From: Gammaproteobacteria bacterium
Lineage (GTDB): Bacteria > Pseudomonadota > Gammaproteobacteria > JAKDMP01
DNA length: 64,000 nucleotides
Assembly: GCA_050739575.1 (NCBI GenBank)
Contig: JBOIBN010000001.1
Span: forward strand, 26,608 to 90,607
Reading direction: 5' to 3'
The notes below the pieces were generated by a model. It did no database searches and had not been told where the DNA came from. It saw nothing but the letters and a program-made list of their open reading frames with translations. The translations under genes and the position numbers were made by a program. Shown one piece after another: positions 6,446-33,421 of the stretch; the first letter of the stretch is position 1, and each line of letters opens with the position of its first letter.

Positions 6446-8408
6446 CAGCACCCTCGATCTCGCCATGCGCATCACCGCAATAGATGTCTTCAGCGGGGTG
6501 CTGAATCGCTTCCGCACGCAGATCATGGGCGCGGGGGCGCAGTCCAAAGAATTGATGCGCGACTACGACCTCGCGCTTTCCAACATCCGCAAGGGGTTCA
6601 ACGGGCTCGCAGCCGCCAAGTACGGCTTCGACAAAATGAAGCCCGCGCTCGACAACGCTGCGAAGCTCCAGCAGGCGACGCTTGCCTTCTCGCAGATCCT
6701 GCAGGGCGCCCATCCGAACGCGAAGAAGCTCGCCGATCAAATGCAGCGCGTCAGCGACAATGCCATCAGCGTGGCGCGGCACATGAAATACAGCGCCATC
6801 GAGGTCATGGACGTCTCGCGGCTGCTCTACAAGTCCGGCATTCCGCTCGCGGCCATTCTCGACCGCGTGGGCAAAAGCGGCAAGACCATTTACGGCCTCG
6901 CCTACTACACCGAGGCGCTCGCCGAGACGCAGGGCACGACGCCGCAAGAGACGGCGGCGCAGATCGGCAACGTCGGCCATGCGTTCCGGTTGAAGCCGAA
7001 CCAATATGCGCGCGCCATCAACCTGATCACGCAGGCGCAACCGGTCGCATCCGGTTCGCTCACCGAGCTGTTCCACAATCTGGCCCAGTCGGGCGCCATT
7101 ACCAAATACCTCAGCCATACGAGCCTGCTCAGCCTGCTGGCGGGACTTAAAACGGTAGCGCCGCTTGGTGAAGAGGGGGGTACCGATTTCGCGACCATGC
7201 TGGAGACCTTCGGATCCATGCGGGTGCGCGGCAAAAAATATCTGCAAAAATATGGACTGAATTTTTACGATAAACAGGGCCAATTCCTGGGCCTCGATAA
7301 ATCGTTAGACGTGCTGCGTAAAACCATTGCGGCGCGGCACTGGACGCCAGAGCAGATAAACAAGATTTTGGGACCCATCTTCGGGCAACAGGGACTCAAG
7401 GCCATCGCGCTGATGACCGCGCCGAACGCGCCGGGAGTGAAAAGTTACCAGGAAATCAAAAAATCGATCACGGAGCAGGCCAACCTCAGTCAGCAACGGA
7501 TCGAGTGGGAGAAGGGTTACCTCGCGCAGCTTTCCGAGCTGAAGACTACGGGGCAAACGTTGAGCGCGGTGCTCGCAACGCCGGTCCTGAGCCCGACCGT
7601 CGGCGTGATGAAAACGCTGAACGACTGGATGGGCGATTTCACGCTCGCCGCCCATCATCACAAGTCCATCGGCATCGCCGCGACGGCCGCAGGGGGCGCC
7701 GCGCTTGCCGCCGCCGTCGGCTATTCGGCCTGGAATCTGATCAAAACGATAAAGCCCGGCAGCCACGTACTGCGCAGCCTGCTCGGCAAAGGCGGGGGCT
7801 TGGCCGCCCGCATCGGCGAAGGCAAGCTTATCCAAAAAGTCGCCGGGGTGCCGTCGGTCTTCGTGGTGAATATGCCCTCCGGTGGGCTTCCGGCGCCGGC
7901 CGGAGGCATCCCCCCGGGCGGCTCACGGATTTTGCTGCCGCCATCATTCGGCGAGAGAGGCGCGGCGATCGCGGCAGGCAGCATTGCCGCGCGCCTGAAG
8001 GGCTTCTTGCTGGCGCCGGCGTTGGCATCCATCAGCTCGGCAAAAGGATTGAAGGCGACCGCGGGCGCGGCCGGGAAACTCGTCGGTGCATTGGGACTCG
8101 CCGCCAGCGCCGGTTGGGCATTAGGCAAGGCGCTCGACCGCATCCCCGCCGTGCACAGTTTCTTCGACAAGGAGTTCCAGAACAGTCTGGCGAATGCAGT
8201 GATCACGGCTGCTTCCGGCGCGAACAAGAATGCGGTCGAATTGACCCGCGGCGCGCAACTGGAGCGCGCATGGCGCACGCAGCACAAGGACTTCAAGGGC
8301 GCGATCAAGATCACGATCGATAGCAAGGGCAAAGCGCATGTGACCGAGCTGCGCAGTAGCACACCGCGCGTGAACCTGAGCGTCGGCCATGCGATGAGCA
8401 CGCCGTGA
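6438..8408 (+). CDS. Tail tape measure protein
   Basis: 656 aa, helical and Gly/Ala-rich, located after the chaperone and its frameshift extension. Confidence 0.85.
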   Translation: MSDSTLDLAMRITAIDVFSGVLNRFRTQIMGAGAQSKELMRDYDLALSNIRKGFNGLAAAKYGFDKMKPALDNAAKLQQATLAFSQILQGAHPNAKKLADQMQRVSDNAISVARHMKYSAIEVMDVSRLLYKSGIPLAAILDRVGKSGKTIYGLAYYTEALAETQGTTPQETAAQIGNVGHAFRLKPNQYARAINLITQAQPVASGSLTELFHNLAQSGAITKYLSHTSLLSLLAGLKTVAPLGEEGGTDFATMLETFGSMRVRGKKYLQKYGLNFYDKQGQFLGLDKSLDVLRKTIAARHWTPEQINKILGPIFGQQGLKAIALMTAPNAPGVKSYQEIKKSITEQANLSQQRIEWEKGYLAQLSELKTTGQTLSAVLATPVLSPTVGVMKTLNDWMGDFTLAAHHHKSIGIAATAAGGAALAAAVGYSAWNLIKTIKPGSHVLRSLLGKGGGLAARIGEGKLIQKVAGVPSVFVVNMPSGGLPAPAGGIPPGGSRILLPPSFGERGAAIAAGSIAARLKGFLLAPALASISSAKGLKATAGAAGKLVGALGLAASAGWALGKALDRIPAVHSFFDKEFQNSLANAVITAASGANKNAVELTRGAQLERAWRTQHKDFKGAIKITIDSKGKAHVTELRSSTPRVNLSVGHAMSTP

Positions 8409-8787: not shown

Positions 8788-10029
8788 GTGAGCTGGCGCG
8801 ATCAAATGCTGCCGGGCTCCTTCCGCGGCGCGCCGTTCCTGATCAAGGTGGCGCGCACGGGCGTCGGGCGGCGCACGGAGCTGCATCAGTATCCGCTGCG
8901 CGATACGCCGTGGGCGGAGGATCTTGGGCGCCACGCGCGGAGCTTCACGGTGGAATGCTTCGTGCTCGGGGCGGACTACATGAGCCAGCGCAATGCGCTG
9001 ATGGATGCGCTCGAACAGGGCGGCGCGGGCACATTAGTGCATCCGTATCTGGGGACGAAGAGCGTCGTCGTTAACGGCAGCGCGGACATCACCGAGGACA
9101 CCGCCGAGGGCGGGATGGCGCGCTTCTCGATTCCGTTCGCTGAAAGCGGCCAGAAGCTCGAGCCGGCGGCGGCGACCGATACGGCCGGTGCGGTCGCCGA
9201 TCAGGCGTCAGCGGGCAATGCGGCGCTTGCGACGCAGTTCAGCGACGACTTCGCGACCGAAGGGTATCCGCAGTGGGTGCAGGACGCGGCGAGCGCGAAC
9301 ACGAACGAGTTGACGGACACGCTCGATTCGCTGCGGAGTTCCATTCCCGGCATTCCCGATTCCGTGGTGGCGTTCGATTCGCAGCTCGCGGAATTCAGCC
9401 AATCGCTCGCGAGCCTGATTCGCACGCCGTACAACCTGGCGGCGTCTGTGGTGAGCTTGATCGCGGGCCTCGGCACGATCGCCGAGCAGCCGCTGGATGC
9501 GGTGAATCTCTATTCCACGCTGTCGACCTGGCAACCCTCCGGACCGCTGCCGGCGGCGACGACGCCGGCGCGTGCGCAGGCGGCAGCGAACCAGCAGGCG
9601 CTGACGGATCTTGTGCAGCGCACGGCGATCATGCAGCAGGGCGCGGCTGCGTCGCGGGTGCCGGCGCAGAGCGGCACGGATACATCGGTGGACGGCACGC
9701 CGCTCGCGGGTTACGACACGGCCGATGTGGCGCTTGCCGTGCGCGATGCGATTACCGGTTCGATCGATACGCAGCAGCTCACGGCGCCCGACGCGGTATT
9801 CGATGCGCTGACGGATCTGCGCGCGGCCGTGGTGACCGACTTCGATGCGCGCGCGGGAGCGCTCCCTTCGCTGGTGACTTTCACGCCGGCGACGGATCTG
9901 CCGGCGACCGTGATCGCCTGGCGTCTGTACGCGGATGCGAGCCGCGATGCGGAGATCGTGCAGCGCAACGCCGTGGTCTATCCCGGAGCGGTGCCCGGCG
10001 GCGCGCCGCTGGAGGTGGCCAGTGCCTGA
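8788..10029 (+). CDS. DNA circulation protein (Mu gpN-like)
   Basis: 413 aa with a GTG start and GGAG Shine-Dalgarno. It sits at the Mu N position, after the tape measure and before P. Confidence 0.8.
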   Translation: MSWRDQMLPGSFRGAPFLIKVARTGVGRRTELHQYPLRDTPWAEDLGRHARSFTVECFVLGADYMSQRNALMDALEQGGAGTLVHPYLGTKSVVVNGSADITEDTAEGGMARFSIPFAESGQKLEPAAATDTAGAVADQASAGNAALATQFSDDFATEGYPQWVQDAASANTNELTDTLDSLRSSIPGIPDSVVAFDSQLAEFSQSLASLIRTPYNLAASVVSLIAGLGTIAEQPLDAVNLYSTLSTWQPSGPLPAATTPARAQAAANQQALTDLVQRTAIMQQGAAASRVPAQSGTDTSVDGTPLAGYDTADVALAVRDAITGSIDTQQLTAPDAVFDALTDLRAAVVTDFDARAGALPSLVTFTPATDLPATVIAWRLYADASRDAEIVQRNAVVYPGAVPGGAPLEVASA

Positions 10030-11062
10030 GCTGCAGCTCAAGGTCGGCGGCCAGATCTACAGCGGCTGGGAAGAGGTGCGCGTCTCGCGCGGCATAGACC
10101 AGCTTGCCGGCTCCTTCGAACTGAAACTCTCGGAGCGTTTCGACGGCACGAGCACACTGCGGCCGATCCGCTACGGCCAGAGCGCGACGGTGCTCGCCGA
10201 CGGCGAGACGGTGATGACCGGCTTCATCGATACGGTCGCGCCGGACTACGACGACACCACGCACTTCCTGAACGTGTCCGGGCGCGATGCGACCGGCGAC
10301 CTGGTGGACTGTGCGGCGATCCACAAGTCGAGCGTGTGGACGAATCAATCGCTCGCGCAGATCGCCTTCGACCTGGTGCAGCCGTTCAAGGCCGGCCTCG
10401 AGGTGATCGCCGACGTCGGCGCGCCCTTCCCGACCTGGCGGATCGAGCCGGGCGAAACCGTATTCGAAAATTTGGACCGCGCCGCGCGCTACCGCGGCGT
10501 GCTGCTGACTTCCGACGGCCTCGGCAATCTCGTGATCACGCAGCCGGGCGCGGACGTCGCACCGGCGGCGCTGGTGCTCGGCCAGAACATTCTCCGCGCC
10601 CAGGGCCATTCCAGTTCGCTCGAACGCTTCGCCGATTACATCGTGCGCGCGCAGCAGGCGGGCACCGATACGGTCTATGGCACGACTGCCGCTTCGCCGA
10701 GCGGCGAGGCGCTCGATTCCGCCGTCGGCCGCTACCGCCCGACCGTAATCGTGGCCGAGGATATGGCCGACCAGGCCGCGTGCCAGACGCGCGCCAACTG
10801 GCAGCGTACGGTCGCCGCGGCGCGTTCGCAGCAGATCGTCTATACCGTGAGCACCTGGCGTGCGGACGGACGCCTGTGGCAACCGAATGCGTTGGTGCCG
10901 GTGACCGATCCCTTCATGGGCATAGACGAGCGGCGCCTGATCTCGCGCGTTGACTTCGTGCTCGATTCGCAGGGCTCGCGCACCGAGCTGACGGTGGTGC
11001 CGCGTCACGCCTACGATCCGCAGCACCTGCCCGATCCGCCGGCGGGCGGAGGGTTGTTCTGA
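10022..11062 (+). CDS. Mu gpP-like tail/baseplate protein (phage late control D family)
   Basis: GRDATGDLVDCAAIH and RYRGVLLTSDGLGNLV align to Mu P GRDKTADLIDCAAVY and RARGVLMTSNAAGELV. The GTG start at 10022 overlaps the N stop (GTGCCTGA). Confidence 0.75.
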   Translation: MPELQLKVGGQIYSGWEEVRVSRGIDQLAGSFELKLSERFDGTSTLRPIRYGQSATVLADGETVMTGFIDTVAPDYDDTTHFLNVSGRDATGDLVDCAAIHKSSVWTNQSLAQIAFDLVQPFKAGLEVIADVGAPFPTWRIEPGETVFENLDRAARYRGVLLTSDGLGNLVITQPGADVAPAALVLGQNILRAQGHSSSLERFADYIVRAQQAGTDTVYGTTAASPSGEALDSAVGRYRPTVIVAEDMADQAACQTRANWQRTVAAARSQQIVYTVSTWRADGRLWQPNALVPVTDPFMGIDERRLISRVDFVLDSQGSRTELTVVPRHAYDPQHLPDPPAGGGLF

Positions 11063-11628
11063 TGGAACTCGCACGCGTGCTCGCGCGGCGCATCCGCATG
11101 ATCGCGGGCCGCGCCGTGATCAATCTCGCGAACGACGCGCTCAAGGTGCAGAGCGTGCAGATCTCCGCACTCGATACCGAAGTGCTGCAGGCGCAGCGCT
11201 TCCAGGAGTACGGCTTTACGTCGGTGCCGCTCGCCGGCGCCGAAGGCATCTTCCTCGCGATCGCCGGCGTGCGCGGCCACACGATCGTCATCGCGAGCGA
11301 CGACGGGCGCTATCGGCGGAAAAATCTGCAACCCGGCGAAGTCGCGCTCTACACCGACGAGGGCGATTACATTCAGCTCGCGCGCGGCAAGAAGATTCAA
11401 GTCGTGAGCGGCGGCGAGGTGGACGTGACCGGACCGAACGTGAACGTGATGGCCACGAGCAAGATCACCTGCGACACGCCGGAGCTGCACTGCACGGGCA
11501 AAATTACCGCCGCCGACGAGATCAGCTCCGACGTCGATTGCATTTCCGCCGGCGTGTCGGGCAAGGGCCATTTGACGACCGGCGTGCAGAGCGGCGGCGA
11601 CTTGTCCGGCCCTCCGGAGGCGAGCTGA
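11062..11628 (+). CDS. Baseplate assembly protein V / central spike (Mu gp45-like)
   Basis: 188-aa ORF at the position of Mu gp45, following P and preceding gp46/gp47. Confidence 0.7.
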   Translation: MELARVLARRIRMIAGRAVINLANDALKVQSVQISALDTEVLQAQRFQEYGFTSVPLAGAEGIFLAIAGVRGHTIVIASDDGRYRRKNLQPGEVALYTDEGDYIQLARGKKIQVVSGGEVDVTGPNVNVMATSKITCDTPELHCTGKITAADEISSDVDCISAGVSGKGHLTTGVQSGGDLSGPPEAS

Positions 11629-12074
11629 TGGACGCCGCATTGATCTGGAACCCGAACGGCTATGCCGACATTGCGCTTTCCGGCGGCGATCTCGCGCACG
11701 ACGACGGACTCGAAACCGCGGTGATCCTGTCGCTGTTCTGCGATGCGCGCGCCGATGCGGACGACAGCCTCGACGCCGGCGCGGATCCGCGCGGCTACTG
11801 GGGCGACAGCTTCGCAGCCATTGCGGGCGACGTGACCGGCTCGAAGCTGTGGCTGATCGTGCGCCAAAAGCAGCTTGCCGACGTCGCCAACCGCGCCCAG
11901 GAATATGCGGCGGCCGCGCTCGCATGGCTGGTCGAGGACGGCATCGCGGCGACGGTGAACGTGATCGCCGAGTGGATTGCACAGGGCACGCTCGCGCTGT
12001 CGATCGCGATCGCCAAGCCCGGATCGAACGACGTCTTTCAACGCCGTTATCAGTACGTTTGGAGCGCCCTTTAA
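11628..12074 (+). CDS. Baseplate protein (Mu gp46 / P2 W-like)
   Basis: 148 aa. The start overlaps the gp45 stop (TGATG). It is the gp46-position ORF immediately before gp47. Confidence 0.7.
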   Translation: MDAALIWNPNGYADIALSGGDLAHDDGLETAVILSLFCDARADADDSLDAGADPRGYWGDSFAAIAGDVTGSKLWLIVRQKQLADVANRAQEYAAAALAWLVEDGIAATVNVIAEWIAQGTLALSIAIAKPGSNDVFQRRYQYVWSAL

Positions 12075-13156
12075 TGCCGTTTTCACGCCCCACGCTCGCT
12101 ACGCTGATCGACCGCATCGCCGGCGACATCGAATCGCGCCTGCCCGGCTCCGACGCGCGCCTGCGCCGCAACCTGCTGACGATCCTCGGCCGCGCCGAGG
12201 CCGGTGCGACACACGGGCTCTACGGGCACCAGGAATGGATCTCGCTGCAGGTCATCATCGATACCGCCGAAAACGACTGGCTGGAGCGCTGGGCGGCGAT
12301 CTGGACGGTTGGGCGCAAGGGCGCCGGTGCCGCGCAGGGCAACCTTTTACTCACCGGCACGAACGGCGCGATCCTGCCTGCCGGCAGCAGCTATACGCGC
12401 AGCGACGGCGCGCTCTACACCACCGATGCCGATGCCACCATCGTCGCCGGTACCGCGACTGTAGCCGTGACCGCATCGCTTGCCGGCGTCGCCGGCGACA
12501 CCGATGCGAATTCCACGCTGACGCTGGTGTCGTCCGTGACCGGCATCGATGCGGCGGCGACGGTGGATGCGGACGGCATCGAGGGCGGCGCGGACATCGA
12601 GGACGACGATTCGCTGCGCGTGCGCCTGCTCGATCGCATCGGCGCTCCGCCGACCGGCGGCAGCGATCCCGATTACGTGGCGTGGGCGGAAGAAGTCGCC
12701 GGCGTCACCCGCGCCTGGGTGTATCCGAAAGAGCAAGGCCCCGGCACGGTGGTGGTGCGCTTCGTGACCGACGACGCGCCGGGCGGCTTGATTCCCGACG
12801 ATGCGACCGTGCAGGCGGTCGCCGCCAGCATCGTCGCCAAGCGCACGGTGACGGCGGACGTGTTCGTGTTCGCGCCGATCGCCGATCCGCTCGATCTGAC
12901 CATTCAACTGGTTCCCGACACTATCGCGGTGCGCGCGGCCGTCACCGCCGAGATTGCCGACATGATTCTGCGCGAGGCCATCCCGGCCGGGACGCTCAAT
13001 GGCAGTGTGCAGGTCGGCGAGATCATCCGCAGCCACATTGACGAGGCGATCTCCATCGCTGACGGTGAGACCGATCACACGTTGCTGGTGCCGACCGCGA
13101 ACGTGCAGCCGGCCATCGGCCACATCGTGACGCTGGGAACGATCACATGGGCCTGA
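12074..13156 (+). CDS. Baseplate J-like protein (Mu gp47)
   Basis: 360-aa ORF whose length and position (after gp46, before gp48) match Mu gp47. Confidence 0.8.
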   Translation: MPFSRPTLATLIDRIAGDIESRLPGSDARLRRNLLTILGRAEAGATHGLYGHQEWISLQVIIDTAENDWLERWAAIWTVGRKGAGAAQGNLLLTGTNGAILPAGSSYTRSDGALYTTDADATIVAGTATVAVTASLAGVAGDTDANSTLTLVSSVTGIDAAATVDADGIEGGADIEDDDSLRVRLLDRIGAPPTGGSDPDYVAWAEEVAGVTRAWVYPKEQGPGTVVVRFVTDDAPGGLIPDDATVQAVAASIVAKRTVTADVFVFAPIADPLDLTIQLVPDTIAVRAAVTAEIADMILREAIPAGTLNGSVQVGEIIRSHIDEAISIADGETDHTLLVPTANVQPAIGHIVTLGTITWA

Positions 13157-15669
13157 GCGCGGATACCTACGCCGCCACCGAACGTGCGCTGCTGCCGCCC
13201 GGCCGCGCGCTCGCCGATGGCGGCGAAGGCACGCTCACGGATCTGCTCGAGGCGCTCGCCCAGGAATTCTCGCGCGTGGATGCGAGCGGCGACGTGCTGC
13301 TGCAGGAAGCCTTCCCCGACACCGCCGTCGAGCTGCTTCCGGATTGGGAGCGCATCGCCAAACTGCCGTCCGCCTGCACGCCGGCCGGCCAGACGACGGC
13401 GCAGCGGCAGGCGTCGGTGGTGCGCAAACTCACGGCCAACGAAGCGCAGACGATTGCGTTCATCGTTGCACTCGCCGCGTCCTACGGCTATACGATCTCG
13501 ATCGTGGAGCGCCGGGCGCTGCGCTTCGGCTACAACGCCTATTGCGGCTACCCGTTCGGAAGCTGGGACTGGCAATTCGTGTGGGAGGCGCACAGCGAAG
13601 GCACGCCGATCGAAATGCTGTATTTCGACACGGGCCATTGCGGCGACGATTTCGGCGCCTTCGGCGATCCGACGATGGAGTGCCGCCTGAAGACCGGCAA
13701 CCAGAGCCACATCATTCCGCGCTTCTGCTACGACTTCACCGGCTACAACCTGTTCCAGTATCGCGACATCGGTCGGCTGTTCTGGATCGGCCGCGCCGGA
13801 TCTCTGTTCCAGGATACTGCCGGCACGGTGCCCGTCACTGCCTACGGCCAGACCGTGGGCTTGATTAAAGACCTCTCAGGTCACGGCGGCGATCTCATGC
13901 TCACGGTCGGGCCGGGCGCCGTGTACTCGCAGGACGAGAACGGCTACGACTGCCTGGTGAGCGCGGGCGATTCGATGTACAGCGGCTCCGATGCCGATCT
14001 GCCGATGGGCGCGAACAACGTCCACATTGCCGCCACGGTGGCCTTCGATCAGTTCACCAAAAACGCGAGCTGCTTCAACTACGGCACCAGCGCGATCCTC
14101 GAAGAGCGCGGCATCGGTCTCGACAATTCGACGCCGCAGAAAATGACCGCGAATATCTACAACGTCCAGGCCGACGGCCAGTCGCCGATCGCAGGCCAGC
14201 CTTACGTGATGGAGTGCGATGTGCTCTACCACACGGTCAGCCTGTATATCGACGGAGTCTTCGAGAGCAGCGCCACCGGCGTCGTCAATACGGTCAGCGG
14301 CGCACTCACGCTGTTCGGTTCGGCGTTGCCGGGAAAACTGTTTACCGGAAAGTTTTACGGCGGCGTGATCTTCGGTGGGAGTTCCTGGCCGCGCGCGGCC
14401 GTGACGCGCTGGCTCGGAGCGCTCGCGGGACAGACGTTTCCCGGCTATGACCTGCTGCTGCTCGACCAGGCTTTCGCGCGCAGCTCTCAGGCGACGTGGA
14501 CGGACCCGGCCGGGATCCTCCAGACGGCGAGCGCCAATGCGGCCCGCTATAACAATGATCGCGACACCGGCGAGGCTTACGGACTGCTGATCGAGGAGCC
14601 GCGTACCAATCAGATTACCGATCCGTTCAATCCGACGACGTCGAATTGGGTGCAGACCAATGCGGCCGCGGCGCTCGCCCAGGGCACAGGCCCCGACGGT
14701 TCCAATTCGCTCATCAAGCTCACGACCGATGTCGTCGCGACCGTCGAACCGCACATGTACAACATCACCTGCCTGATCCCGGACCCCGCGCCCGACGTCA
14801 TCAGCGTTCTGACGTGGGTGCAGCGCGGCAACTACGACAACGGTGCGTCGCCGACGATCCGGATGCATTCCAAACAGACGCCGGCGCCTGGAGCGGGCAC
14901 GCCGGTCGATGTGAGCGCGCGTATTCTGCAAGGCCCCGGCAGCGTAGATATCGCCGACTTTGACGCCGGGCTGGTGCAGGTATACGGGCTGTCGCAGACC
15001 GAACCCACGTTGATCGAAACACGCACGATGATTCCCTTGATCGCTGGTCAGACCTACATCCTCACCTGCCGCAACCGCGATCAGGCCATCGGCGCCCAGG
15101 TGGGCGACACCACCTTTTGGTACGCCCAGCAGTTCGAGTTCGCCGATTTCGCGAGCACGTTGATTCCGAGCGGCGTCGCCACGCGGCCCGGCGACGATGT
15201 CGCCATTCCCCCGACTTGGGCGGCGACCGAAGCCGGGTGCCTGTGGGGCGAATTCCGCGTCCGGAATCTGCCGCCGAATCCGTATCCGACATCTTCGGGC
15301 ATCGTTGCAGCACTGGCATACACGGCCGCGAACACCTTCATCGGAGTCAATGTGGATTCCAACGGCCAGTTGATTATTACCGGCCGTCTTGCCGGCAGCG
15401 CTTATCAGCAGGCTTATACGCCGAACGGAAGCATTGTCGCGGGGCAGAGCTACAAATTCGCCGCGTCCTGGTCCCCGACCGCGTTTCGCCTTTCGCTCAA
15501 CGGTGCGGCCGTGATCAGCGCTGCGCAAACGCAAGCGCTGCCGACCGCGCCCAGCCAGTTCTTCGTCGGTTCGATTTCCGGCACCTATTACCTCAACGGC
15601 ACCGTGCGTTCGCTGCGCTATGCCCCTTTCGCGCCCGCCAACGCGCAGCTGCAGGCGCTCGCTTCGTGA
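13147..15669 (+). CDS. Mu gp48-like (DUF2313) N-terminal domain fused to a long tail-fibre / receptor-binding region with two concanavalin/LamG-like segments
   Basis: The first ~190 aa match Mu gp48. The protein then continues for ~650 aa with LYIDG and LNGTVRSL lectin-like signatures. It is 840 aa in total. Confidence 0.65.
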   Translation: MGLSADTYAATERALLPPGRALADGGEGTLTDLLEALAQEFSRVDASGDVLLQEAFPDTAVELLPDWERIAKLPSACTPAGQTTAQRQASVVRKLTANEAQTIAFIVALAASYGYTISIVERRALRFGYNAYCGYPFGSWDWQFVWEAHSEGTPIEMLYFDTGHCGDDFGAFGDPTMECRLKTGNQSHIIPRFCYDFTGYNLFQYRDIGRLFWIGRAGSLFQDTAGTVPVTAYGQTVGLIKDLSGHGGDLMLTVGPGAVYSQDENGYDCLVSAGDSMYSGSDADLPMGANNVHIAATVAFDQFTKNASCFNYGTSAILEERGIGLDNSTPQKMTANIYNVQADGQSPIAGQPYVMECDVLYHTVSLYIDGVFESSATGVVNTVSGALTLFGSALPGKLFTGKFYGGVIFGGSSWPRAAVTRWLGALAGQTFPGYDLLLLDQAFARSSQATWTDPAGILQTASANAARYNNDRDTGEAYGLLIEEPRTNQITDPFNPTTSNWVQTNAAAALAQGTGPDGSNSLIKLTTDVVATVEPHMYNITCLIPDPAPDVISVLTWVQRGNYDNGASPTIRMHSKQTPAPGAGTPVDVSARILQGPGSVDIADFDAGLVQVYGLSQTEPTLIETRTMIPLIAGQTYILTCRNRDQAIGAQVGDTTFWYAQQFEFADFASTLIPSGVATRPGDDVAIPPTWAATEAGCLWGEFRVRNLPPNPYPTSSGIVAALAYTAANTFIGVNVDSNGQLIITGRLAGSAYQQAYTPNGSIVAGQSYKFAASWSPTAFRLSLNGAAVISAAQTQALPTAPSQFFVGSISGTYYLNGTVRSLRYAPFAPANAQLQALAS

Positions 15670-15687
15670 ACATCATAGGAGATCATC

Positions 15688-16218
15688 GTGGACTATCCAG
15701 TATCTGATGACACCGTCGGCCTGGTGGCCGGCAAATTCAGCGACGGCGATCCGACCAGCGGCATCCCCGCATCGCGCTGGCCCTCGGAAACGGCGGACGC
15801 CATCATGGACGAGCTGATCGCCGTTATCGTGCAGGGCGGCCTCACGCCCGCCGAAGCGACGCTCACGCAGGTGCGCGACGCGATTCTCGCGATCGTCACC
15901 GCGGCACTGGGTACCGCAATTCCCAAGGACAAGTTCAATGCGACGGCCGATCCGGTCGTGACCAACGACAGCAGTCAGGGCTACAGCGAAGGCTCGCGCT
16001 GGTTCAACACGACGACGCCGGACGTGTTCGTGTGCATCAATCCTGCTGTCGGTGCCGCGGTGTGGCTGAAGTCCACGCTCGAACTCGCGGATCTCGCGAA
16101 CTTCGCCGTTAAAAATGCCGACAACGAATTCAGCGCGGGCCAGAGCGTGACCGGCAATCTCACGATTGACGGCAACATCTACTCGACCGGCGTGGTCCAG
16201 GCCGGTGTGACGCTGTGA
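15688..16218 (+). CDS. Putative tail fibre-associated protein
   Basis: 176-aa ORF directly after the gp48-fibre fusion gene. The sequence NLTIDGNIYSTGVVQ is fibre-like. GGAG precedes the GTG start. Confidence 0.4.
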   Translation: MDYPVSDDTVGLVAGKFSDGDPTSGIPASRWPSETADAIMDELIAVIVQGGLTPAEATLTQVRDAILAIVTAALGTAIPKDKFNATADPVVTNDSSQGYSEGSRWFNTTTPDVFVCINPAVGAAVWLKSTLELADLANFAVKNADNEFSAGQSVTGNLTIDGNIYSTGVVQAGVTL

Positions 16219-17198
16219 GCCTTGCCGCGCAAAAGTTCATAGACGCGCTCGGCTTCGACGTGGCTGATATCTTCGAGCCGTGGGAATCGGGCGATCCGCA
16301 TGCGGCCGACACCGGTTTCCAGAACGCGGCCGGCGACGATCTGTCCGCCGTGCTCGCACCGCTTTCGGTCGGCTCCGCGATCGATCACGACACCATGTTC
16401 CAGAACGGCGCCGGCACCGACCTGAACGCGATCTTCGCGAAGAAGGGCTCGCGCAGCGGATCGGCGATCAGCGCGACAATTCCCTCGACCGCGAACGCCG
16501 TCACCCATGCGCCCGGCGGTACGGCGAGCGCGGACCTGACCTGCGTCCCCGCCGGCGGCTCCGGAACGGGCTACACGTTCTTGTGGACCGTCGTGAGCGG
16601 CAGCGCGACGATCACCAATGCGACCTCGCCGACCTGCACCGTGCAGGAAGCGGTGCCCGGTACCGGTTCCATCACGAGCACCTTCAAGTGCCATGTCGTG
16701 GATTCCGCCAGCAATTCCTGCGACAGCAACAACGGCGTCGTTACATTCAAATATGTCGCCGTCGGCGGCAGCGATTGCCTGCGGCTCGATCAATGGCTCG
16801 CGCCCACGGTGCAGGTGCGCGACGCCCACAAGGGGATGTTGCTCGATGCGCGCACCGACGCCGACGAATTCTGCCGGCTGCCGATCGTGAACGATCCGAC
16901 CATCATCCTGCAGCTCTGCTACCGGCTCATCGCGGCCAACGGATACGCGATCGAGTGCACCGTGAGCACGCCATTCACACTTCCCGACGGAGAAAGCTAT
17001 CCGGCGCCGCGGATGCTCGGCCGGATGTTGCTCTGTCACGAAACCCGTGAATGGTCGCCGATCGTGACCGTCCAGTCATTGGGACGCTGCGCGGCCATGC
17101 TCATCAGCCTGGGCGGCGCGAGCTATGCCGGCGGCGACGAGCCGAACAAGCGCAGCTATTCCCACAACACCCGCAAGTTTGGACCCATCTCACCGTAA
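16215..17198 (+). CDS. Hypothetical tail fibre-region protein (Cys-rich, Ig-like segments)
   Basis: 327 aa. The start overlaps the upstream stop. It lies within the fibre module. Confidence 0.4.
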   Translation: MSLAAQKFIDALGFDVADIFEPWESGDPHAADTGFQNAAGDDLSAVLAPLSVGSAIDHDTMFQNGAGTDLNAIFAKKGSRSGSAISATIPSTANAVTHAPGGTASADLTCVPAGGSGTGYTFLWTVVSGSATITNATSPTCTVQEAVPGTGSITSTFKCHVVDSASNSCDSNNGVVTFKYVAVGGSDCLRLDQWLAPTVQVRDAHKGMLLDARTDADEFCRLPIVNDPTIILQLCYRLIAANGYAIECTVSTPFTLPDGESYPAPRMLGRMLLCHETREWSPIVTVQSLGRCAAMLISLGGASYAGGDEPNKRSYSHNTRKFGPISP

Positions 17199-17213
17199 AT
17201 CAGGAGAACCTCG

Positions 17214-17654
17214 ATGCTCGCCTTTAACAAGTTCAACGCCTTCGTACTTGCCGTCGCGACGAAAAAGATCGATCTCAATGCAGACACGCTCAAGATCATG
17301 CTCACGGATACGGCGTCGGTGGTGACCAATTCCGTCAAGACCGACATCACCGAAATATCCGCCGGCAACGGCTACAGCGCCGGCGGCGCTGCCGTCGGAA
17401 GCAATTCCGCCTCGCAGACCTCCGGCACCATGAAGGTGGTCGGCGACGCCGTGACCTTCACCGCCAGCGGCGGCGCGATCGCGCAGTTCCGCTACCTGGT
17501 GCTTTACGACGATACCGCCGCGAGCAAGGATCTGATCGGTTGGTGGGACAACGGCAGTGAAGTCAATCTCGGCGACGGCTCGAGCTTCACGCTCGGCGAC
17601 GATTTCAGCGGGGATAACTGGGATGCCACGACGCCGCTCTTTACGCTGGCGTAA
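17214..17654 (+). CDS. Hypothetical small beta-rich tail-region protein
   Basis: 146 aa, with an AGGAGA Shine-Dalgarno 6 nt upstream. Confidence 0.4.
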   Translation: MLAFNKFNAFVLAVATKKIDLNADTLKIMLTDTASVVTNSVKTDITEISAGNGYSAGGAAVGSNSASQTSGTMKVVGDAVTFTASGGAIAQFRYLVLYDDTAASKDLIGWWDNGSEVNLGDGSSFTLGDDFSGDNWDATTPLFTLA

Positions 17655-17663
17655 CGCACGACG

Positions 17664-19214
17664 ATGAGTGCCCCGACCCCGGTCCAGTCGAAATCGAATC
17701 AAAGCTCCAGCGCGGCAACGCTGGGCATCGTCTTCGATGCGGCGCCGGGGGTCGGAAACATCCTGATCGCGCAGGTGAATTTCGTCGGTACCGGCGCATC
17801 CGATCCAGCCGTCGCGCCGGACGGCACCTGGTACCCGCTCCTGAGCGGTTTGAATTACGGCACCATCTCCGGGTACAACGGTTGGCAGGATATCTGGTAT
17901 CACGAAGTCGAGAGCGGCGAAGCCAATTCCTACACCTTCGGCATCGGCGCCGCGACGCCGACCATATGGTCGGTGGTCGTGGACGAGTATTCCGGAGTGG
18001 ATGTCGCGAGCGTGCTCGACGTTGCGACAGTCCTCACGGCCACCGGCAACGGCAAGACGTTCGCCGCTCCGGCCAACACGACGCTCGACGCCAATGCCCT
18101 CGTGCTATTTTGCAACGTCTATTACGACGGAGCCAATCAGGTGTACACCGCGCCGTCCGGCTATTCGCAAGACGGCCTGAACTCGGTCGCGGGCGCCAAA
18201 AATGCAATTTGTTCGATCGCTCAAGCGACCGCAGGTGGGACGGGCACTCCCTCGGCTTCGATCAACGGATCCGTAAACAAGCTGTGGGGAGTCGCGCTGC
18301 TGGCCTTGAAGGCGAGTACCGCCGCACACGATTATGCGGCGGCCGCCGGAGCGTCTTACGCCCTCACCGGCGCCGCTGGCGGCACTGTGCAACGCATCGC
18401 AGCGGCCGGCGCGAGCGTGGCGCTTGCGGGTGCATCCGCCGGATCGGCTCAACGCAGCGGTGCAGCCGGCGGCGTATTCGTCGCTGGCGGCGCGGACGCC
18501 GGCATTGTGCTGCATTGGCTCATTGCCGGCGCCGGCGCCGCGTTCGCCGGAGCGGGCTCTCCTGCAGGTACCGCCCGGCGCGCGGGCGCTGCGGGTACAG
18601 CGTTTGCGCTGGCCGGTGCGGATGCTGCAGGCGCGCGGCGCAGCGGTGCAGCCGGCGGCGTGTTCGCATGGAGCGGTGCGCAGGCGACGATGCGGCTGCA
18701 CCTGTTCGTTGCGGGAGCCGGCGCGACTTTCAACTGGGTCGGTGCAGGTGCCTTCGGCACGGGCGTTCAGCGTTATTTCGGTGCGGCTTCCGGTGCCACA
18801 TTCGCGATCGCTGGCGCCCACGCCGTGATCGTCCTGCATTGGCACATCGCCGGTGCGGGTGCCGTTTTCGTCGCCAATGGCGCCGCTGCCGGGAGCGCGC
18901 AACATCGCGCCGCGGCCGGGGCGGACATGACGCTTGCGGGGAGCGCTGCAGCTTCAGCGCGGCGCGTCGGTGCGGCCGGCCCCGCATTCTCCACACAAGG
19001 CGCGGCGGCCGGATGGGTGGTGCGACTTTACGTCGCTGGCGCCGGGGCCGATTTCGAATGGCTGGGCGCGCCGGCCGGAACTCTTTTCAGCGGGCGCCGC
19101 GACTATCACGCGGTCACCGCGGTGGATCGCTCGCCGCGCTACGCGCTCTCGATGCAGCCCGGCATTCAAAGCGCCATTAACGGCGGCATTAAAGCCGTCT
19201 TCATCGAGGATTGA
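17664..19214 (+). CDS. Tail-region protein with ~12 tandem ~21-residue Ala/Gly repeats (AGAGAxF...)
   Basis: The N-terminal 220 aa are unique. They are followed by repeats such as AAGGVFVAGGADAGIVLHWLI and AGAGAAFAGAGSPAGTARRAG. Confidence 0.5.
   Translation: MSAPTPVQSKSNQSSSAATLGIVFDAAPGVGNILIAQVNFVGTGASDPAVAPDGTWYPLLSGLNYGTISGYNGWQDIWYHEVESGEANSYTFGIGAATPTIWSVVVDEYSGVDVASVLDVATVLTATGNGKTFAAPANTTLDANALVLFCNVYYDGANQVYTAPSGYSQDGLNSVAGAKNAICSIAQATAGGTGTPSASINGSVNKLWGVALLALKASTAAHDYAAAAGASYALTGAAGGTVQRIAAAGASVALAGASAGSAQRSGAAGGVFVAGGADAGIVLHWLIAGAGAAFAGAGSPAGTARRAGAAGTAFALAGADAAGARRSGAAGGVFAWSGAQATMRLHLFVAGAGATFNWVGAGAFGTGVQRYFGAASGATFAIAGAHAVIVLHWHIAGAGAVFVANGAAAGSAQHRAAAGADMTLAGSAAASARRVGAAGPAFSTQGAAAGWVVRLYVAGAGADFEWLGAPAGTLFSGRRDYHAVTAVDRSPRYALSMQPGIQSAINGGIKAVFIED
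18340..19080 (+). repeat. Degenerate 63-bp tandem repeat array (~12 units) inside the 17664..19214 gene
   Basis: Repeated gcngccggngcngg...ttcg... units are visible in the DNA and as 21-aa units in the protein. Confidence 0.6.
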
Positions 19215-19516
19215 ACGTGGCCACCATCTACATCGGCCGAGACAATCCGTTCAAATTGCAGGCGTCGGAAGACGGCGCCTCGATCGACCTGAGCGGCGTC
19301 ACCAAGATGGCGGTACGCGTCGGTGCAGCCGATACCGATTCCGATGCGAATCCGATACTCTTCGACTGGAGCGCCGGCGACGGCGTCGTCAGCATAATCG
19401 TCGGGCTCGTCCCCCAATTGAGCGCAGGCGCGAAACGGCTGCGTCTCATCGCCTATTCAGACGCATGGCCCGATGGGATCGTGCTGGGCGATCTTCCCGT
19501 CGATGTCACCGCGTGA
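19211..19516 (+). CDS. Hypothetical protein (101 aa)
   Basis: The ORF overlaps the upstream stop. The start codon is uncertain (TTG or GTG). Confidence 0.3.
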   Translation: MNVATIYIGRDNPFKLQASEDGASIDLSGVTKMAVRVGAADTDSDANPILFDWSAGDGVVSIIVGLVPQLSAGAKRLRLIAYSDAWPDGIVLGDLPVDVTA

Positions 19517-19544
19517 TTGGCCTCATCAACTTTGGAGCATCCCC

Positions 19545-20678
19545 ATGAATACCCTAAAATCCATCGGCTGCGCGATACTCAAAATTTTCGGGCATCCGTG
19601 TACGCAACCGCCGATGCCTTCCGCATTGCCGCGCCAACGCGGCGTCGTTTGCGTGTTCGGCGGCGCCGGCGGTGTCCAGCCGGGGATGCTGCAAACGCTG
19701 CGCGATACGTTCGGGCCGAACTGCAACAGCGTGCGGCTGTATCTTCACCTAAAGAATGTCGCCGCTGCCGCCAAGATCACGCTCGCCGGAGCCGAGCAGC
19801 TCGCTTATGCCTGGGCGGACGCAATGCTCGACGAGGCTTCGAAGCTCGGCATGAATTGCTGGATTCACCGCCGCTACTTCTACATGCCGGACGGCACGCT
19901 GATTGATCGCACGAGTCCGGACTTCTGGAACAATGTGAACGGCCAATTCGACCAGGCGCTCTCGCAGGTCACGGCAATGGCCACGCACTTCCACGCCCAC
20001 GGTGCGGAACTGGCGGGCTACGACATCATCAGCGAGCCCGTCGCGATCGTGAACGGCGTGGACCAAGTGCCGCCGGGCTATCTCGCGCGCCAGATCCAGA
20101 TCCTCGACGCGCTCGACAGCGGCGATGCCGCGCTCACGTCGAAGAACGGCACGCGCTACGCGATCGCCAAATTCGCCCCGTGGGCCGGTGCGGTCGGCTA
20201 TGCTGGCCAGCAGCCTGTTCCCGGCTTCCCGCGTCTCGTTTACGGCGTCCACTTCTACCAACCCAGGCCGTCCGTCTATGCGGGCGTCGAGAAACCCTAC
20301 GGCTTCCCCGGTCCCGGCTGGCCGTGCACGATTGGCACGACGGCATGGAATGCGGCCGAGTTGCAGAAGGTGTTGCAGCCGGCTCTCGACTTCGGGTCCA
20401 CCTACGGCGTGCGCATGAGTCTGAGCGAGTTCAGCTACGCCCGCTGGAGCGCCGGCGGCGAGCAGTGGCTGAGCGACCTCATCGGCATCGTCGAAGCCGC
20501 CGGCTGGGACTGGAACTATTTCATGGTCGGCGCCGCGCCTGGCGTGGTCGCTCAATGCTGGGCGGCCGAATACGATGCCTCCTTCACCCCGGCCGCCTTC
20601 GGCCTTCCGGGCGAAGTCGGCATCGGCGCATCGCCGCGCGGCAAAGCCCTAGCCAGCATTTTCCAGGCCATCAAGTAA
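19545..20678 (+). CDS. Glycoside hydrolase family 5-like protein (cellulase superfamily), last gene of the element
   Basis: GGAGCA lies 6 nt upstream of the ATG. The candidate acid/base Glu is in YDIISEP (GH5 NEP position). The candidate nucleophile Glu is in MSLSEFSY. VHFY lies between them. Confidence 0.45.
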   Translation: MNTLKSIGCAILKIFGHPCTQPPMPSALPRQRGVVCVFGGAGGVQPGMLQTLRDTFGPNCNSVRLYLHLKNVAAAAKITLAGAEQLAYAWADAMLDEASKLGMNCWIHRRYFYMPDGTLIDRTSPDFWNNVNGQFDQALSQVTAMATHFHAHGAELAGYDIISEPVAIVNGVDQVPPGYLARQIQILDALDSGDAALTSKNGTRYAIAKFAPWAGAVGYAGQQPVPGFPRLVYGVHFYQPRPSVYAGVEKPYGFPGPGWPCTIGTTAWNAAELQKVLQPALDFGSTYGVRMSLSEFSYARWSAGGEQWLSDLIGIVEAAGWDWNYFMVGAAPGVVAQCWAAEYDASFTPAAFGLPGEVGIGASPRGKALASIFQAIK

Positions 20679-21157: not shown

Positions 21158-22768
21158 ATGCCGACCCTTAAGTCCACGATAGACCGCAGCGGCAAAGACT
21201 TCGCCGCCAACCGTCGGAAAATGGAAGCGCTGGCCGGGGATCTGCGCGAGACGCTCGCCAAAACGGCACTCGGCGGCAGTGAGCGCGCGCGCAAAAAGCA
21301 TACCGACCGCGGCAAACTTCTGCCGCGTGACCGCATCGAGGCGCTGCTCGATCCCGGCTCGCCCTTCCTCGAACTCTCCCCGCTCGCCGCGCACGGCATG
21401 TACGAAGATGCGGCGCCGGCCGCCGGGCTCGTTGCCGGAATCGGTCGCGTTCATGGACGCGAGGTGATGGTGGTGGCAAACGATGCCACCGTGAAGGGCG
21501 GTACTTATTACCCGATTACGGTGAAGAAGCATTTACGCGCACAGGAAGTGGCGCTTGAAAACCGCCTCCCCTGCATTTATCTCGTGGATTCCGGCGGCGC
21601 CTTCCTGCCGCTGCAGGACGAGGTGTTTCCGGACAAGGAACATTTCGGCCGCATCTTCTACAATCAGGCGCGTCTCTCGCGCGAGCGCATTCCGCAGATC
21701 GCAGTGGTCATGGGTTCCTGCACCGCCGGCGGTGCCTACGTACCGGCGATGTGCGACGAGGCCATCATCGTGCGCAATCAGGGCACGATCTTTCTCGGTG
21801 GCCCGCCGCTGGTGAAGGCGGCGACCGGCGAAGTGGTGGACGCGGAGACACTCGGCGGCGGCGACGTGCACAGCAAGATTTCCGGCGTCACCGACTATCT
21901 GGCAGAGAACGATGCGCACGCCTTGCAGATCGCACGCGACATCGTCGCGCATCTCAATTACCAACGCCCGTCCTGGCTCGCCAAGAACGAACCGATGGAA
22001 CCACGCTACGCGGCGGACGAACTCTACGGCATCGTGCCGCAGGAAACGCGCTTCCCCTACGACGCACACGAAATCATCGCGCGCCTCACGGACGGCTCCG
22101 AGTTTCAAGAGTTCAAGGCCAACTACGGCAAGACGCTCGTCACCGGTTTCGCGCACCTGTATGGCTACCCGGTCGGCATCGTCGCCAACAACGGCATCCT
22201 GTTTTCAGAATCCGCCCTCAAGGGCGCGCACTTCATCGAACTGTGCGAACAGCGGCGCATTCCTCTCGTGTTTCTGCAGAACATCACCGGCTTCATGGTC
22301 GGGCAGAAATACGAAGCCGGCGGCATCGCCAAGGACGGCGCGAAGATGGTCACGGCCGTCGCCTGCGCGACGGTGCCGAAGTTCACCGTCATCATAGGCG
22401 GCAGCTTCGGCGCCGGTAACTACGCCATGTGCGGTCGTGCCTACGGCGCGCGTTTCCTGTGGATGTGGCCCAACGCGCGCATCAGCGTGATGGGCGGCGA
22501 ACAGGCCTCTTCGGTGCTCGCCACAATCAAGCGCGATGGCATCGAAGCCAAAGGCGGCAAATGGAGCGGCAAGGAAGAAGAGGAATTCAAAACGCCCCTA
22601 CGCGAACAGTACGAAACCCAGGGCCATCCTTACTACGCCTCGGCACGCCTGTGGGACGACGGCATCATTGATCCCGTCGACACTCGCCGTGTACTTGGCC
22701 TCGCCCTCGCCGTTGCCGAAAACGCGCCGCTCGAACCCGGCAGTCGTTACGGCGTCTTCCGCATGTGA
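21158..22768 (+). CDS. liuB: Methylcrotonyl-CoA carboxylase carboxyltransferase (beta) subunit
   Basis: 535-aa acyl-CoA carboxyltransferase, followed by a hydratase, a biotin carboxylase alpha subunit and HMG-CoA lyase (leucine catabolism). Confidence 0.8.
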
Positions 22769-22847
22769 ATAAACCGTCTTTACATTCCGGCTCCGTTATT
22801 CCGGCGAAAAGCGGGATGACGAAATTTAGCCATGAACAGAAACAATC

Positions 22848-23626
22848 ATGACTGACAATGTATTGCTCGACACCGATGCAAGCGGAGTGGCGACGCTGAC
22901 GCTCAACCGGGCCGACAAACACAATGCTTTCGACGACACAATTATTGCGGAGCTGACGCAAAAACTAAAGCAATTGAATGGCGATAAAGCAGTACGCGTC
23001 GTCGTGCTCACTGGTGCGGGGAAATCCTTTTCGGCGGGTGCGGATCTCAACTGGATGCGCTCTATGGCGGGCTACGGCGAGAAGGAAAATCTCGAAGACG
23101 CGCGCGCGCTTGCCGAACTCATGGCCGTACTCGATCGTCTTGACAAGCCCACGATTGCACGCGTCAACGGCGCCGTGTTCGGCGGCGGCGTGGGACTCGT
23201 TGCCTGCTGCGACATCGCCGTCGGTACGCCGCGCGCGAAGATGGCGCTCACCGAAGTCAAACTCGGCCTTGCACCTGCGGTGATCGCGCCCTATGTCGTG
23301 CGTGTCATCGGAGCACGCCAGGCGCGGCGTTGGTTCCAGACCGCGGAAATCATGGAAGCTGATGCGGCGCAGGCCATCGGCCTGCTCCACGAAGTCGTCG
23401 CCGAAGATCAACTGGATGCGCGCGTCGCGACATTCGTCGACTCGCTGCTTGCCGCCGGTCCTCAGGCGCTTGCCGCGTCCAAGCAGCTGGTGGCAATGAC
23501 GAGCGAAGCGAACAAATCCGCCCTCGATACCCTGAAGCGCCAAACCGTAGAGTTGATCGCCCGACTGCGCGTTTCCGAGGAAGGCCAGGAGGGCCTCGCC
23601 GCCTTCCTGGAGAAGCGTAAACCCGA

Positions 23627-23645
<19 letters not shown>
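22848..23645 (+). CDS. liuC: Enoyl-CoA hydratase family (methylglutaconyl-CoA hydratase)
   Basis: Crotonase fold motifs GAGKSFSAGADL and FGGG are present in the ORF. Confidence 0.75.
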
Positions 23646-25611
<1,966 letters not shown>

Positions 25612-25615
<4 letters not shown>

Positions 25616-26547
25616 ACAACCTTCCGAAATCGGTCAAGATCGTCGAGGTTGGTCCGCGCGACGGGCTGCAGAACGAGAAGCAAATCGTTCCCGCGGCGGT
25701 GAAAATCGAATTCATAAACCGCTTGTCGCAATCGGGTCTGAAGGCCATGGAAGCGACGAGTTTCGTAAGCCCGGAGTGGATTCCGCAGCTTGCCGACGCG
25801 GCTGAAGTCTTTCAAAGCATCGAAAAGCACGCCGGGGTCGCCTACGCGGTGCTGGTGCCAAACGAGAAAGGCATGCAGCGGGCGCTGGATGCTGGTGCGA
25901 AGGAGGTTTCGATCTTCACCGCCGCATCGGAAAGCTTCAACCGAAAGAACATCAACGCTTCCATTGCCGAATCCATCGAACGGTTCAAACCGGTAATGGC
26001 TCTCGCTGCAAAACACGGCATCCGCGTGCGCGGCTACGTCTCCACTGCCATTGGCTGTCCCTATGAAGGTCCGATCACACCGCAAGCGGTGGCCCGCGTC
26101 GCTAGAGAACTCGCCGCGCTCGGCTGCTACGAAATTTCGCTCGGCGATACCATAGGCGTCGGCACACCCGTGAAGGCGCAACAGATGCTCGCCGCCGCCG
26201 CCGCCGAAGTGCCGATGGAAAAACTAGCCGTACATTTCCATGACACCTACGGTCAGGCGCTCGCCAACATCTTCGCTTGTCTGCAAATGGGTGTGAGCGT
26301 GGTGGATTCTTCCGTCTCCGGACTCGGCGGCTGTCCTTATGCGAAGGGTGCCACCGGCAACGTGGCCACCGAGGATGTGCTCTATCTGCTCACCGGCATG
26401 GGCATCGCAACCGGTGTGGACATGGGCAAGCTGCTCGATGCGGCAACATTCATCAACACCCAGCTTCAGCGCGCCCCGGCCAGCAAGCTCGGCCGCGTGC
26501 CCGCCGAAAGCCGGTGCGATCCCGGCACTCTGGAAATCCCCCGATGA
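25612..26547 (+). CDS. liuE: Hydroxymethylglutaryl-CoA lyase
   Basis: The N-terminus [15 protein letters not shown] is typical of HMG-CoA lyases. It has a GTGA overlap with liuD. Confidence 0.8.
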
Positions 26548-27641
26548 ACAAAAAAATAAGAATCGGGATTCTTTTCGGCGGGAAATCCGCGGAGCACGAG
26601 ATTTCACTGCTCTCCGCCAAAAACATTATTGACGCTCTCGACAAAGACAAATACGAGCCGGTGCTCATAGGCATAGACAAAAACGGCCGCTGGCTCATGA
26701 ACGAATCTTCGCGGTTCCTGCTCAACAGCAGCAATCCGAAACTCATCGCGCTTAACAAGACCGGCAGCGAAGGCGTCGCGCTCGCACCCCAGAGCGGAGG
26801 CCAGCTTACCAGTCTCGACAGCGGCCAACTGGACAAAGCCGTGGACATGGTGTTCCCCATCCTGCACGGCCCCTTCGGCGAGGACGGCACCGTCCAGGGG
26901 TTGCTGAAACTTGCCGGCGTGCCGTTCGTGGGCGCGAGTGTGCTCGGTTCCGCCGTCGGCATGGACAAGGATGTGATGAAGCGCCTGTTGCGCGACGCCG
27001 GCATTCCCACCCCGCGCTTTCTCAGCTTTATTCGAAGCCAGGCGCCGACATTCGAGGATGTAAAGCGCGAACTGGGTCTGCCGCTGTTCGTCAAGCCGGC
27101 CAATCTGGGTTCTTCCGTGGGCATCGGCAAGGCAAAAGACAAACCGGGATTTGAGCAGTCCGTCAGGGATGCCTTTCGTTACGATACAAAAATCGTTATC
27201 GAAGAAGCCGTGCCGGGCCGTGAAATCGAATGTGCCGTGCTCGGCAACGACGAACCGATCGCCTCGGTGCCGGGTGAAATTATCCCGACTCACGAGTTCT
27301 ACGACTACGAGGCTAAATATATCGACGAGCAGGGCGCCCGTCTGGAAGCTCCGGCAAAACTGGATGCCGATACGATCAAGCGCGTACAGGAACTCGCCAT
27401 CCATACCTTCAAGACCCTCAACTGCGAAGGCATGGGGCGCGTGGATTTCTTCCTCAAGGCCGACGGCACCTTGCTGGTGAACGAGATCAACACCATTCCC
27501 GGCTTCACCAGGATCAGCATGTACCCGCGGCTGTGGGCGCTTTCCGGCATTCCCTACTCCGAGCTTATTGACCGCTTGATTCGGCTGGGCGTGGAACGCT
27601 TCGAACACGAACAAAAATTGAGAACCTCAAATGACACCTGA
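26544..27641 (+). CDS. ddl: D-alanine--D-alanine ligase
   Basis: Start [25 protein letters not shown], with ATP-grasp motifs. It has an ATGA overlap with liuE. Confidence 0.8.
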
Positions 27642-27822
27642 CCGCGGCGTAAGGAGAACAATTCATGGGCGCGCAAAGCTTGCCGTTACATCGTGTACTC
27701 TCCGGCACTTCCCCAACGAGGCGCTCGGGCGCCGAAGCACAAGCCGACTCAGACGCTTCCCCGTCGCGCAACGCCGGCTTTTTGCGGTTCGCTGAACCCC
27801 GCACCGAAGCCCCTCAAGCATA

Positions 27823-29982: not shown

Positions 29983-29986
29983 CGCG

Positions 29987-33390: not shown

Positions 33391-33421
33391 CGTCAACACC
33401 CTTGTTCCATTTTTCGCGAGA

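Follow-up and report, generated by a model that had tools for sequence, protein, structure and literature searches.

A putative phage surface protein with a jelly-roll domain and a predicted, unusually regular beta-solenoid, encoded in the tail region of a Mu-like prophage

In the window analysed here, a 64,000-nucleotide stretch of contig JBOIBN010000001.1 (assembly GCA_050739575.1, positions 26,608 to 90,607 of the forward strand) from a gammaproteobacterium, the tail operon of a Mu-like prophage contains an open reading frame (ORF) of 516 amino acids at 17664..19214 on the + strand, the target of this study. We favour, with a probability of roughly 0.55, the reading that the target is an accessory virion-surface protein of the tail-distal region, in which a binding head is joined to a rigid beta-helix shaft. 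Residues 1-224 would form the head, a jelly-roll beta-sandwich that most likely binds a ligand, probably a glycan. The twelve repeat units of residues 225-480 would stack as the coils of a single-chain parallel beta-solenoid; the rise of a beta-helix is usually 4.8 Å per coil, so that twelve coils would give a shaft about 6 nm long. On this reading the array arose by old duplications, including that of a five-coil block, and is maintained by selection on the protein fold and not generated by recent slippage. The solenoid and jelly-roll folds are moderately well supported by structure prediction, while we infer the presence of the target in the virion, its binding function, its oligomeric state and the end by which it attaches to the particle. 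In kind, the target is a further beta-helical phage tail-region protein, from an un-annotated family and with unusually regular coils.

The ORF is real. It runs from an ATG at 17664 to a TGA at 19214 with all 516 codons intact, and its GC content at the three codon positions (0.67/0.61/0.74) is the pattern expected of a coding frame; the ORFs that overlap it in other frames are the usual shadows of high-GC DNA. The protein is already on record, by exact match, as a hypothetical protein of a Gammaproteobacteria metagenome-assembled genome (MAG), and its gene boundaries are called identically in a second public assembly. Exact matches to the protein occur in three contigs. The DNA of one of these, from a second NCBI assembly, is identical to the window over 14664-20678, the nine single-nucleotide differences all lying outside this segment in host gene DNA. 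No close relatives were found in the metagenome and GTDB genome contigs searched, a word-indexed search of 5.8e9 proteins returned only the target itself at 90% identity (with the full alignment, this search was swamped by repeat-like matches), and tblastn against 50,697 phage records gave no match. Alignment-based locus searches found no stretch that was conserved enough, and searches of the literature found no description of its repeat or its N-terminal domain.

The repeat block (aa 225-480, 18336..19103, + strand) consists of 53% Ala plus Gly, carries a net charge of +8 and contains six His. It was parsed into twelve tandem units, each predicted to form one coil, anchored at Y232, V252, F272, F294, F314, F334, F356, F380, F402, M422, F442 and F464. 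The original prediction of about twelve tandem 21-residue Ala/Gly repeats was right in number and composition, though the units are not uniform 21-mers: the spacings between anchors are 20, 20, 22, 20, 20, 22, 24, 22, 20, 20 and 22 residues, with a mean of 21. Every unit has Gly at -3, an aromatic or aliphatic anchor at 0 (Phe or Tyr in all but two, which have Val or Met), Gly at +4 and Ala at +7, and 11 of the 12 have Arg or His at +12, giving the coil pattern G-x-x-F/Y-x-h-x-G-x-x-A-...-R/H. If the coils stack as predicted, the +12 residues would form an Arg/His ladder along one edge of the solenoid. The role of the solenoid would be that of a rigid shaft or spacer, perhaps with a polyanion-binding surface as well. 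Compared with 200 shuffles, the self-identity of the target is far above chance, with z-scores of 7.0 at an offset of 20 aa, 7.0 at 62 aa and 7.9 at 108 aa. The three-unit super-periodicity that had been noted earlier is thus genuine (62 aa, 20+20+22), yet it is weaker than a five-unit duplication of 108 aa, in which aa 267-363 match aa 375-471 with 55% identity over 97 aa (E 6e-19). This is the strongest internal relation of the protein and defines two five-coil blocks, A (aa 267-373, 18462..18782, + strand) and B (aa 374-480, 18783..19103, + strand).

The structure of the target was predicted with AlphaFold2 as a monomer, from an alignment of 20 sequences. In the model of the repeat block, each unit contributes one 5-residue strand, in register with its neighbours at a spacing of 20-24 residues, and units 6-11 contribute two additional short strands per coil. 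This is the arrangement expected of a right-handed parallel beta-helix of the pectin-lyase-like type, in which coils of about 22 residues are stacked and their strands run parallel and in register. It is seen here with moderate confidence, and the model superposes on solved members of that fold; its best Foldseek matches are beta-helix domains of GH87 enzymes. The target has no match to the curated Pfam families Beta_helix, Pectate_lyase_3 or Cthe_2159 at E<=1. Sequence support comes through a distant homologue, P0012, whose repeats are collinear with those of the target (33% identity over 247 aa, E 8e-11) and which matches PF14262 (Cthe_2159) at 39.2 bits, above the cut-off of 25.8. With this independent support, a beta-solenoid is a moderately well supported model for the repeat block, and the early suggestion of a beta-solenoid is supported by the predicted strands, the GH87 matches and the link from P0012 to PF14262. 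Sequence searches of the PDB with the N-domain profile, the repeat block and P0012 found nothing.

The nearest known counterparts include right-handed parallel beta-helix tailspikes and depolymerases of phages, for instance the tailspike of cyanophage Pam1 (7eea), CBA120 TSP3 (5w6f) and HK620 (2vji). The target could be a tailspike-type depolymerase whose beta-helix catalyses the breakdown of polysaccharide, in the manner of P22 gp9 or the depolymerases of Klebsiella phages. Although the predicted fold is shared, we regard this as improbable. The coils of the target are minimal and regular in sequence and in the model, free of the long loops or insertions that form a groove; the 256-residue repeat block has only six acidic residues (5 Asp and 1 Glu), none of them, by eye, at a position common to all units; and the target matches no Pfam family of beta-helix enzymes. 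The second gene downstream codes for a separate, endoglucanase-like enzyme. In the tailspikes solved so far the coils are irregular and a particle-binding domain lies at the N-terminus. The globular domain of the target is N-terminal; it is not a known particle-binding domain, has no family match, and resembles binding heads rather than known anchors.

Two other groups of beta-solenoids come close to the repeat block. PF14262 Cthe_2159, a polysaccharide-lyase-like, carbohydrate-binding beta-helix, is linked to the target through P0012, whose repeats exceed the gathering cut-off of that family and align collinearly with those of the target; the target itself scores above E 1 against the family, has another domain context and shows no evidence of Ca2+ sites. 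The sequence-regular solenoids of bacteria, such as MpAFP region IV (3p4g), the two-partner-secretion adhesins HMW1 and EtpA and the passengers of autotransporters, share its regularity. The target differs from these in being phage-encoded, in lacking an obvious signal peptide (by eye), in having no two-partner-secretion or autotransporter domain in the Pfam scan, and in having no Ca2+-binding motif of the GGxGxD type that we could see.

The regularity of the protein is not matched in the DNA. The gene had been described as made of 63-bp DNA repeats, recombination-prone and possibly variable in length between strains, and the corresponding alternative is that it is a contingency-type locus whose 63-bp units vary in number by slippage or recombination. 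We consider this very unlikely. Tandem Repeats Finder (TRF), with a minimum score of 30, detected no array of period around 60-66 nt in the target. Repeat finding returned only patches of 14-29 nt with 70-93% identity; the units differ in length (60, 66 and 72 nt), and over their first 42 nt they are on average about 48% identical in pairs. These are not the high-identity, head-to-tail copies of a variable-number repeat. Relative to codon shuffles, DNA periodicity is weak and significant, with z-scores of 4.6 at 60 nt, 5.2 at 66 nt, 7.0 at 186 nt and 7.4 at 324 nt. A complete lack of DNA periodicity, which had been named as grounds for abandoning the repeat description, was thus not observed, yet there is no signal at 63 nt. 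The periodicity that remains is what amino-acid conservation alone would yield. Between blocks A and B, identity at codon positions 1, 2 and 3 is 72, 66 and 42%, and the same codon is used at 22 of the 53 conserved residues, where random synonymous choice would give 21.9. Because synonymous sites between the blocks are random, the five-coil duplication is old and its similarity has been kept at the level of amino acids.

What speaks for changes in unit number is limited to a few points. A 23-nt sequence, CGCAGCGGTGCAGCCGGCGGCGT, occurs twice as an exact direct repeat on the + strand (18453..18475 and 18639-18661), in frame and 186 nt (62 codons) apart. Of 500 resamplings of synonymous codons, none gave a repeat of more than 19 nt, and a length of 23 nt is therefore beyond that expected by chance. 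The two copies span the RSGAAGGV junctions of units 2/3 and 5/6 and may be the trace of a local gene conversion; as the only substrate for recombination in the target, they could permit a rare deletion of three coils. Among repeat-bearing members of the family the number of coils ranges from about 9 to 16, and it is 0 in others, a difference seen only among very distant relatives. The five-coil super-repeat is also present in P0012, at an offset of 114 aa and with 52.5% identity, and this layout common to the target and a distant relative argues against frequent rearrangement. The blocks are more alike within the target (55%) than the target is to P0012 (33%), which suggests that each protein underwent an independent duplication or occasional conversion. 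In the one second assembly in which the DNA was compared, a very small sample, the gene is identical, the only differences being in the flanking host DNA; no change in copy number was thus seen and strain-to-strain length variation found no support. With the DNA copies highly diverged and their synonymous sites saturated, the expectation of recombination-prone repeats is likewise unsupported. The repeat array behaves as a fixed part of the protein's structure and not as a repeat of variable number.

The N-terminal domain (aa 1-224, 17664..18335, + strand) is all-beta, with a net charge of -10, and belongs to an uncharacterised domain family. Modelled alone, it forms a beta-sandwich with a mean predicted local distance difference test score (pLDDT) of 88.6 and a predicted template modelling score of 0.88. 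Its nearest known counterparts are jelly-roll heads of the TNF/C1q-like and carbohydrate-binding types, as found in phage receptor-binding proteins and their like: the head of the Tuc2009 receptor-binding protein (5e7f), the carbohydrate-binding domain of the cyanophage A-1(L) fibre (8ke9) and the C-domain of Chlamydia Pgp3 (4jdn). The only residues invariant in the family are G111 and T139, so no residue of a catalytic type is conserved in the domain.

A full phmmer/HMMER pass over 1.8e9 representative proteins yielded 20 relatives of the target (E 4e-9 to 5e-4). Most of them are stand-alone N-domains of about 220 aa, and five (P0002, P0005, P0008, P0012 and P0018) extend into repeats of 20-22 residues. 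A motif scan and a profile search added viral contigs (L069, L093, L094, L095 and L097) in which the N-domain occurs singly, in duplicate or followed by repeat arrays that differ in sequence and have the same period of 20-22 residues. The profile search of the word-indexed database gave 30 further members, all annotated as hypothetical and none with a Pfam model for the N-domain. The N-domain recurs, alone or fused, in the late-gene modules of many phages and in bacterial surface proteins, and most of the relatives are encoded among phage structural genes. That of P0002 matches phrog_553, annotated as a minor tail protein, at E 3.4e-6, and N-domains of homologues also match phrog_6813 and phrog_3329, both of function unknown. 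The stand-alone relatives L100 and L102 are encoded distally in phage structural modules, the former after a Peptidase_S74 fibre gene and the latter before an M23 peptidase gene that we read as a probable endolysin. The domain is not restricted to phages, since one or two copies of it are found in proteins of Candidatus Saccharibacteria MAGs (L089, 472-2835 and 3775-4926; L090, 1-2001), which by eye have signal-peptide-like N-termini and repeated C-terminal domains.

The protein ends in a non-repetitive tail of 36 residues (YHAVTAVDRSPRYAL...FIED; 19104..19211, + strand), modelled with low confidence (pLDDT 29-51). After their repeat arrays, three members of the family carry a motif P-x-Y-x-L/V preceded by S, E or R. 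It reads SPRYAL in the target, within aa 481-516, EPRYRV in P0012, and RPTYRL/RPTYTL, three times over, in L097 (955-2379). A role in capping or docking is possible.

The position of the target agrees with the reading of a tail-distal surface protein. The element has the MuA transposase and the Mu-type tail genes of a Mu-like prophage, its contractile-tail module being complete, with Pfam matches to DDE_2, HTH_Tnp_Mu, Gp41_Mu, Phage_Mu_Gp45 and Phage_Mu_Gp48. Its genes encode, in order, a Ner-type helix-turn-helix protein (67-360), the MuA transposase (942-2960), a short ORF with MuB-like and other fragments (3333-3932), a DUF2635 protein (3941-4162), sheath (4159-5625), tube (5638-6000), gp41 (5910-6299), tape measure (6438-8408), baseplate hub and spike proteins (8788-11628), wedge (11849-13156), gp48 fused to a ConA-like lectin domain (13147-15669) and a protein with a fibre-like N-terminus (15688-16218). 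These are followed by genes for a 327-aa protein, a phrog_644 protein, the target, a 99-aa protein and a 377-aa endoglucanase-like protein, and host genes start at 21158 with methylcrotonyl-CoA carboxylase. The target is thus the third-last gene before the host genes, in one co-directional, tightly spaced run of Mu-type tail genes. The description of it as a tail-region protein stands, as it shares strand and run with the sheath, tube, tape-measure, baseplate and gp48/fibre genes; its place in a tail/baseplate module, downstream of gp47/gp48-like and fibre-like genes, is that of tail fibres and receptor-binding proteins.

Several observations weigh against the reading of a virion-surface binding protein. 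Scans of the target against Pfam (E<=1), PHROG (E<0.05) and NCBIfam gave nothing meaningful. Confidence in the model of the repeat block is moderate (mean pLDDT of 47-79 over blocks of 10 residues), and with a monomer prediction from 20 sequences a trimeric or intertwined arrangement of the repeats is conceivable. Structural matches to the N-domain cover only about 94 of 226 residues, and for this reason its binding role is only an analogy. Relatives are not consistently linked to tails: P0002 is encoded between the genes for the major capsid protein and a head-tail connector, and L097 and L095 adjoin head, terminase or portal genes, the relative in L097 coming after phrog_240, a head protein. 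Finally, among the ORFs scanned in the element there were no head or lysis genes, and none for head, packaging or lysis between the transposase and the sheath gene; the host element, lacking head and lysis genes, may never produce particles.

The genomic positions of P0002 and L097 raise the alternative that the target is not a tail protein and is instead a head decoration or head-fibre type protein. We consider this unlikely: the element itself shows no head genes in the interval from transposase to sheath, the target comes after the gp48 and fibre genes in the tail operon, and the stand-alone relatives lie at the end of structural modules, beside fibre and probable lysis genes. The state of the element raises a second alternative, that the target is a non-functional, low-complexity ORF decaying in a defective prophage. 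In the ORF at 3333-3932 a MuB-like fragment (phrog_296) is fused with one of phrog_490, which suggests an internal deletion, and the element may be a prophage in decay or a remnant of the tailocin type. The extreme composition of the repeats and the lack of any second sequence at 90% identity point the same way. For the target gene itself we nevertheless find decay hard to credit, given the uninterrupted 516 codons and correct GC pattern at third positions, the conservation of codon positions 1 and 2 between blocks A and B with position 3 random, the anchor positions kept in all twelve units, and an N-domain that retains the motifs of its family and folds confidently in the model.

The preferred reading of a binding head on a rigid shaft could be taken further. 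The combination of a jelly-roll with a regular solenoid of 20-22-residue coils might represent an undescribed, 'reverse-polarity' class of phage surface fibre, with the head at the N-terminus and a basic beta-helix that docks on the particle or binds anionic polysaccharide; with the endoglucanase-like gene, it would make a split pair of binder and enzyme on a head-less, Mu-derived, tailocin-like particle. We offer this as speculation and think it a long shot.

Some of the neighbouring genes deserve comment. The phrog_644 gene (146 aa, 17214..17654, + strand, function unknown) ends 9 nt before the start of the target, and its product is 41% identical to that of the gene directly upstream of P0012. 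Its relatives occur in at least 80 IMG/VR contigs and include gp9 of cyanophage Pam1, which is flanked by the 'needle head' and 'needle' genes, and gp76 of EBPR siphovirus 2, which comes after a tail protein; no solved relative was found. The pair of phrog_644 and N-domain genes is only loosely linked, because just 4 of 80 IMG/VR loci with phrog_644 have an N-domain protein within 6 kb. The genes that follow the phrog_644 homologues in Pam1 and EBPR siphovirus 2 were considered as N-domain carriers and ruled out, as they have no N-domain, and in L097 and L003 the small genes upstream turned out not to be remote phrog_644 homologues. Downstream, the 99-aa gene (19217..19516, + strand) has its GAGGA ribosome-binding site within the end of the target gene; a test for conservation of this gene beside homologues gave no significant similarity. 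The endoglucanase-like gene (19545..20678, + strand), the last before host DNA, matches 8b3y, 8ag9 and 8anx in the PDB (phmmer E 3.5e-15) and, weakly, Pfam Cellulase/GH5; it is an unusual cargo for a Mu-like tail operon to carry at its right end.

In the 840-aa protein encoded at 13147-15669, the Mu gp48 wedge domain (aa 14-188) is followed by a long extension and a ConA-like/Laminin_G_3 lectin domain (aa 714-824), so that the wedge subunit seems to have a fibre or lectin of its own. The host flank at 21158-33546 contains a cluster for leucine/isovalerate catabolism (carboxyltransferase, enoyl-CoA hydratase, biotin carboxylase and HMG-CoA lyase), together with genes for a D-Ala-D-Ala ligase and a GT2 glycosyltransferase and two convergent periplasmic glucan genes of the MdoG/OpgG type.

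No long-standing question depends on the target. What it adds to the catalogue of phage surface proteins is an uncharacterised family that combines an un-annotated jelly-roll with an unusually regular beta-helix repeat and that is thinly spread over sequences from phages and metagenomes (20 distant relatives in 1.8e9 representative proteins). Regular solenoids of this sort are useful scaffolds for structural work. The target also illustrates that a striking repeat in a protein need not mean a dynamic repeat in its DNA. If the target binds a glycan of the host, it would have a bearing on the host range of Mu-like phages or tailocins in uncultured Gammaproteobacteria.
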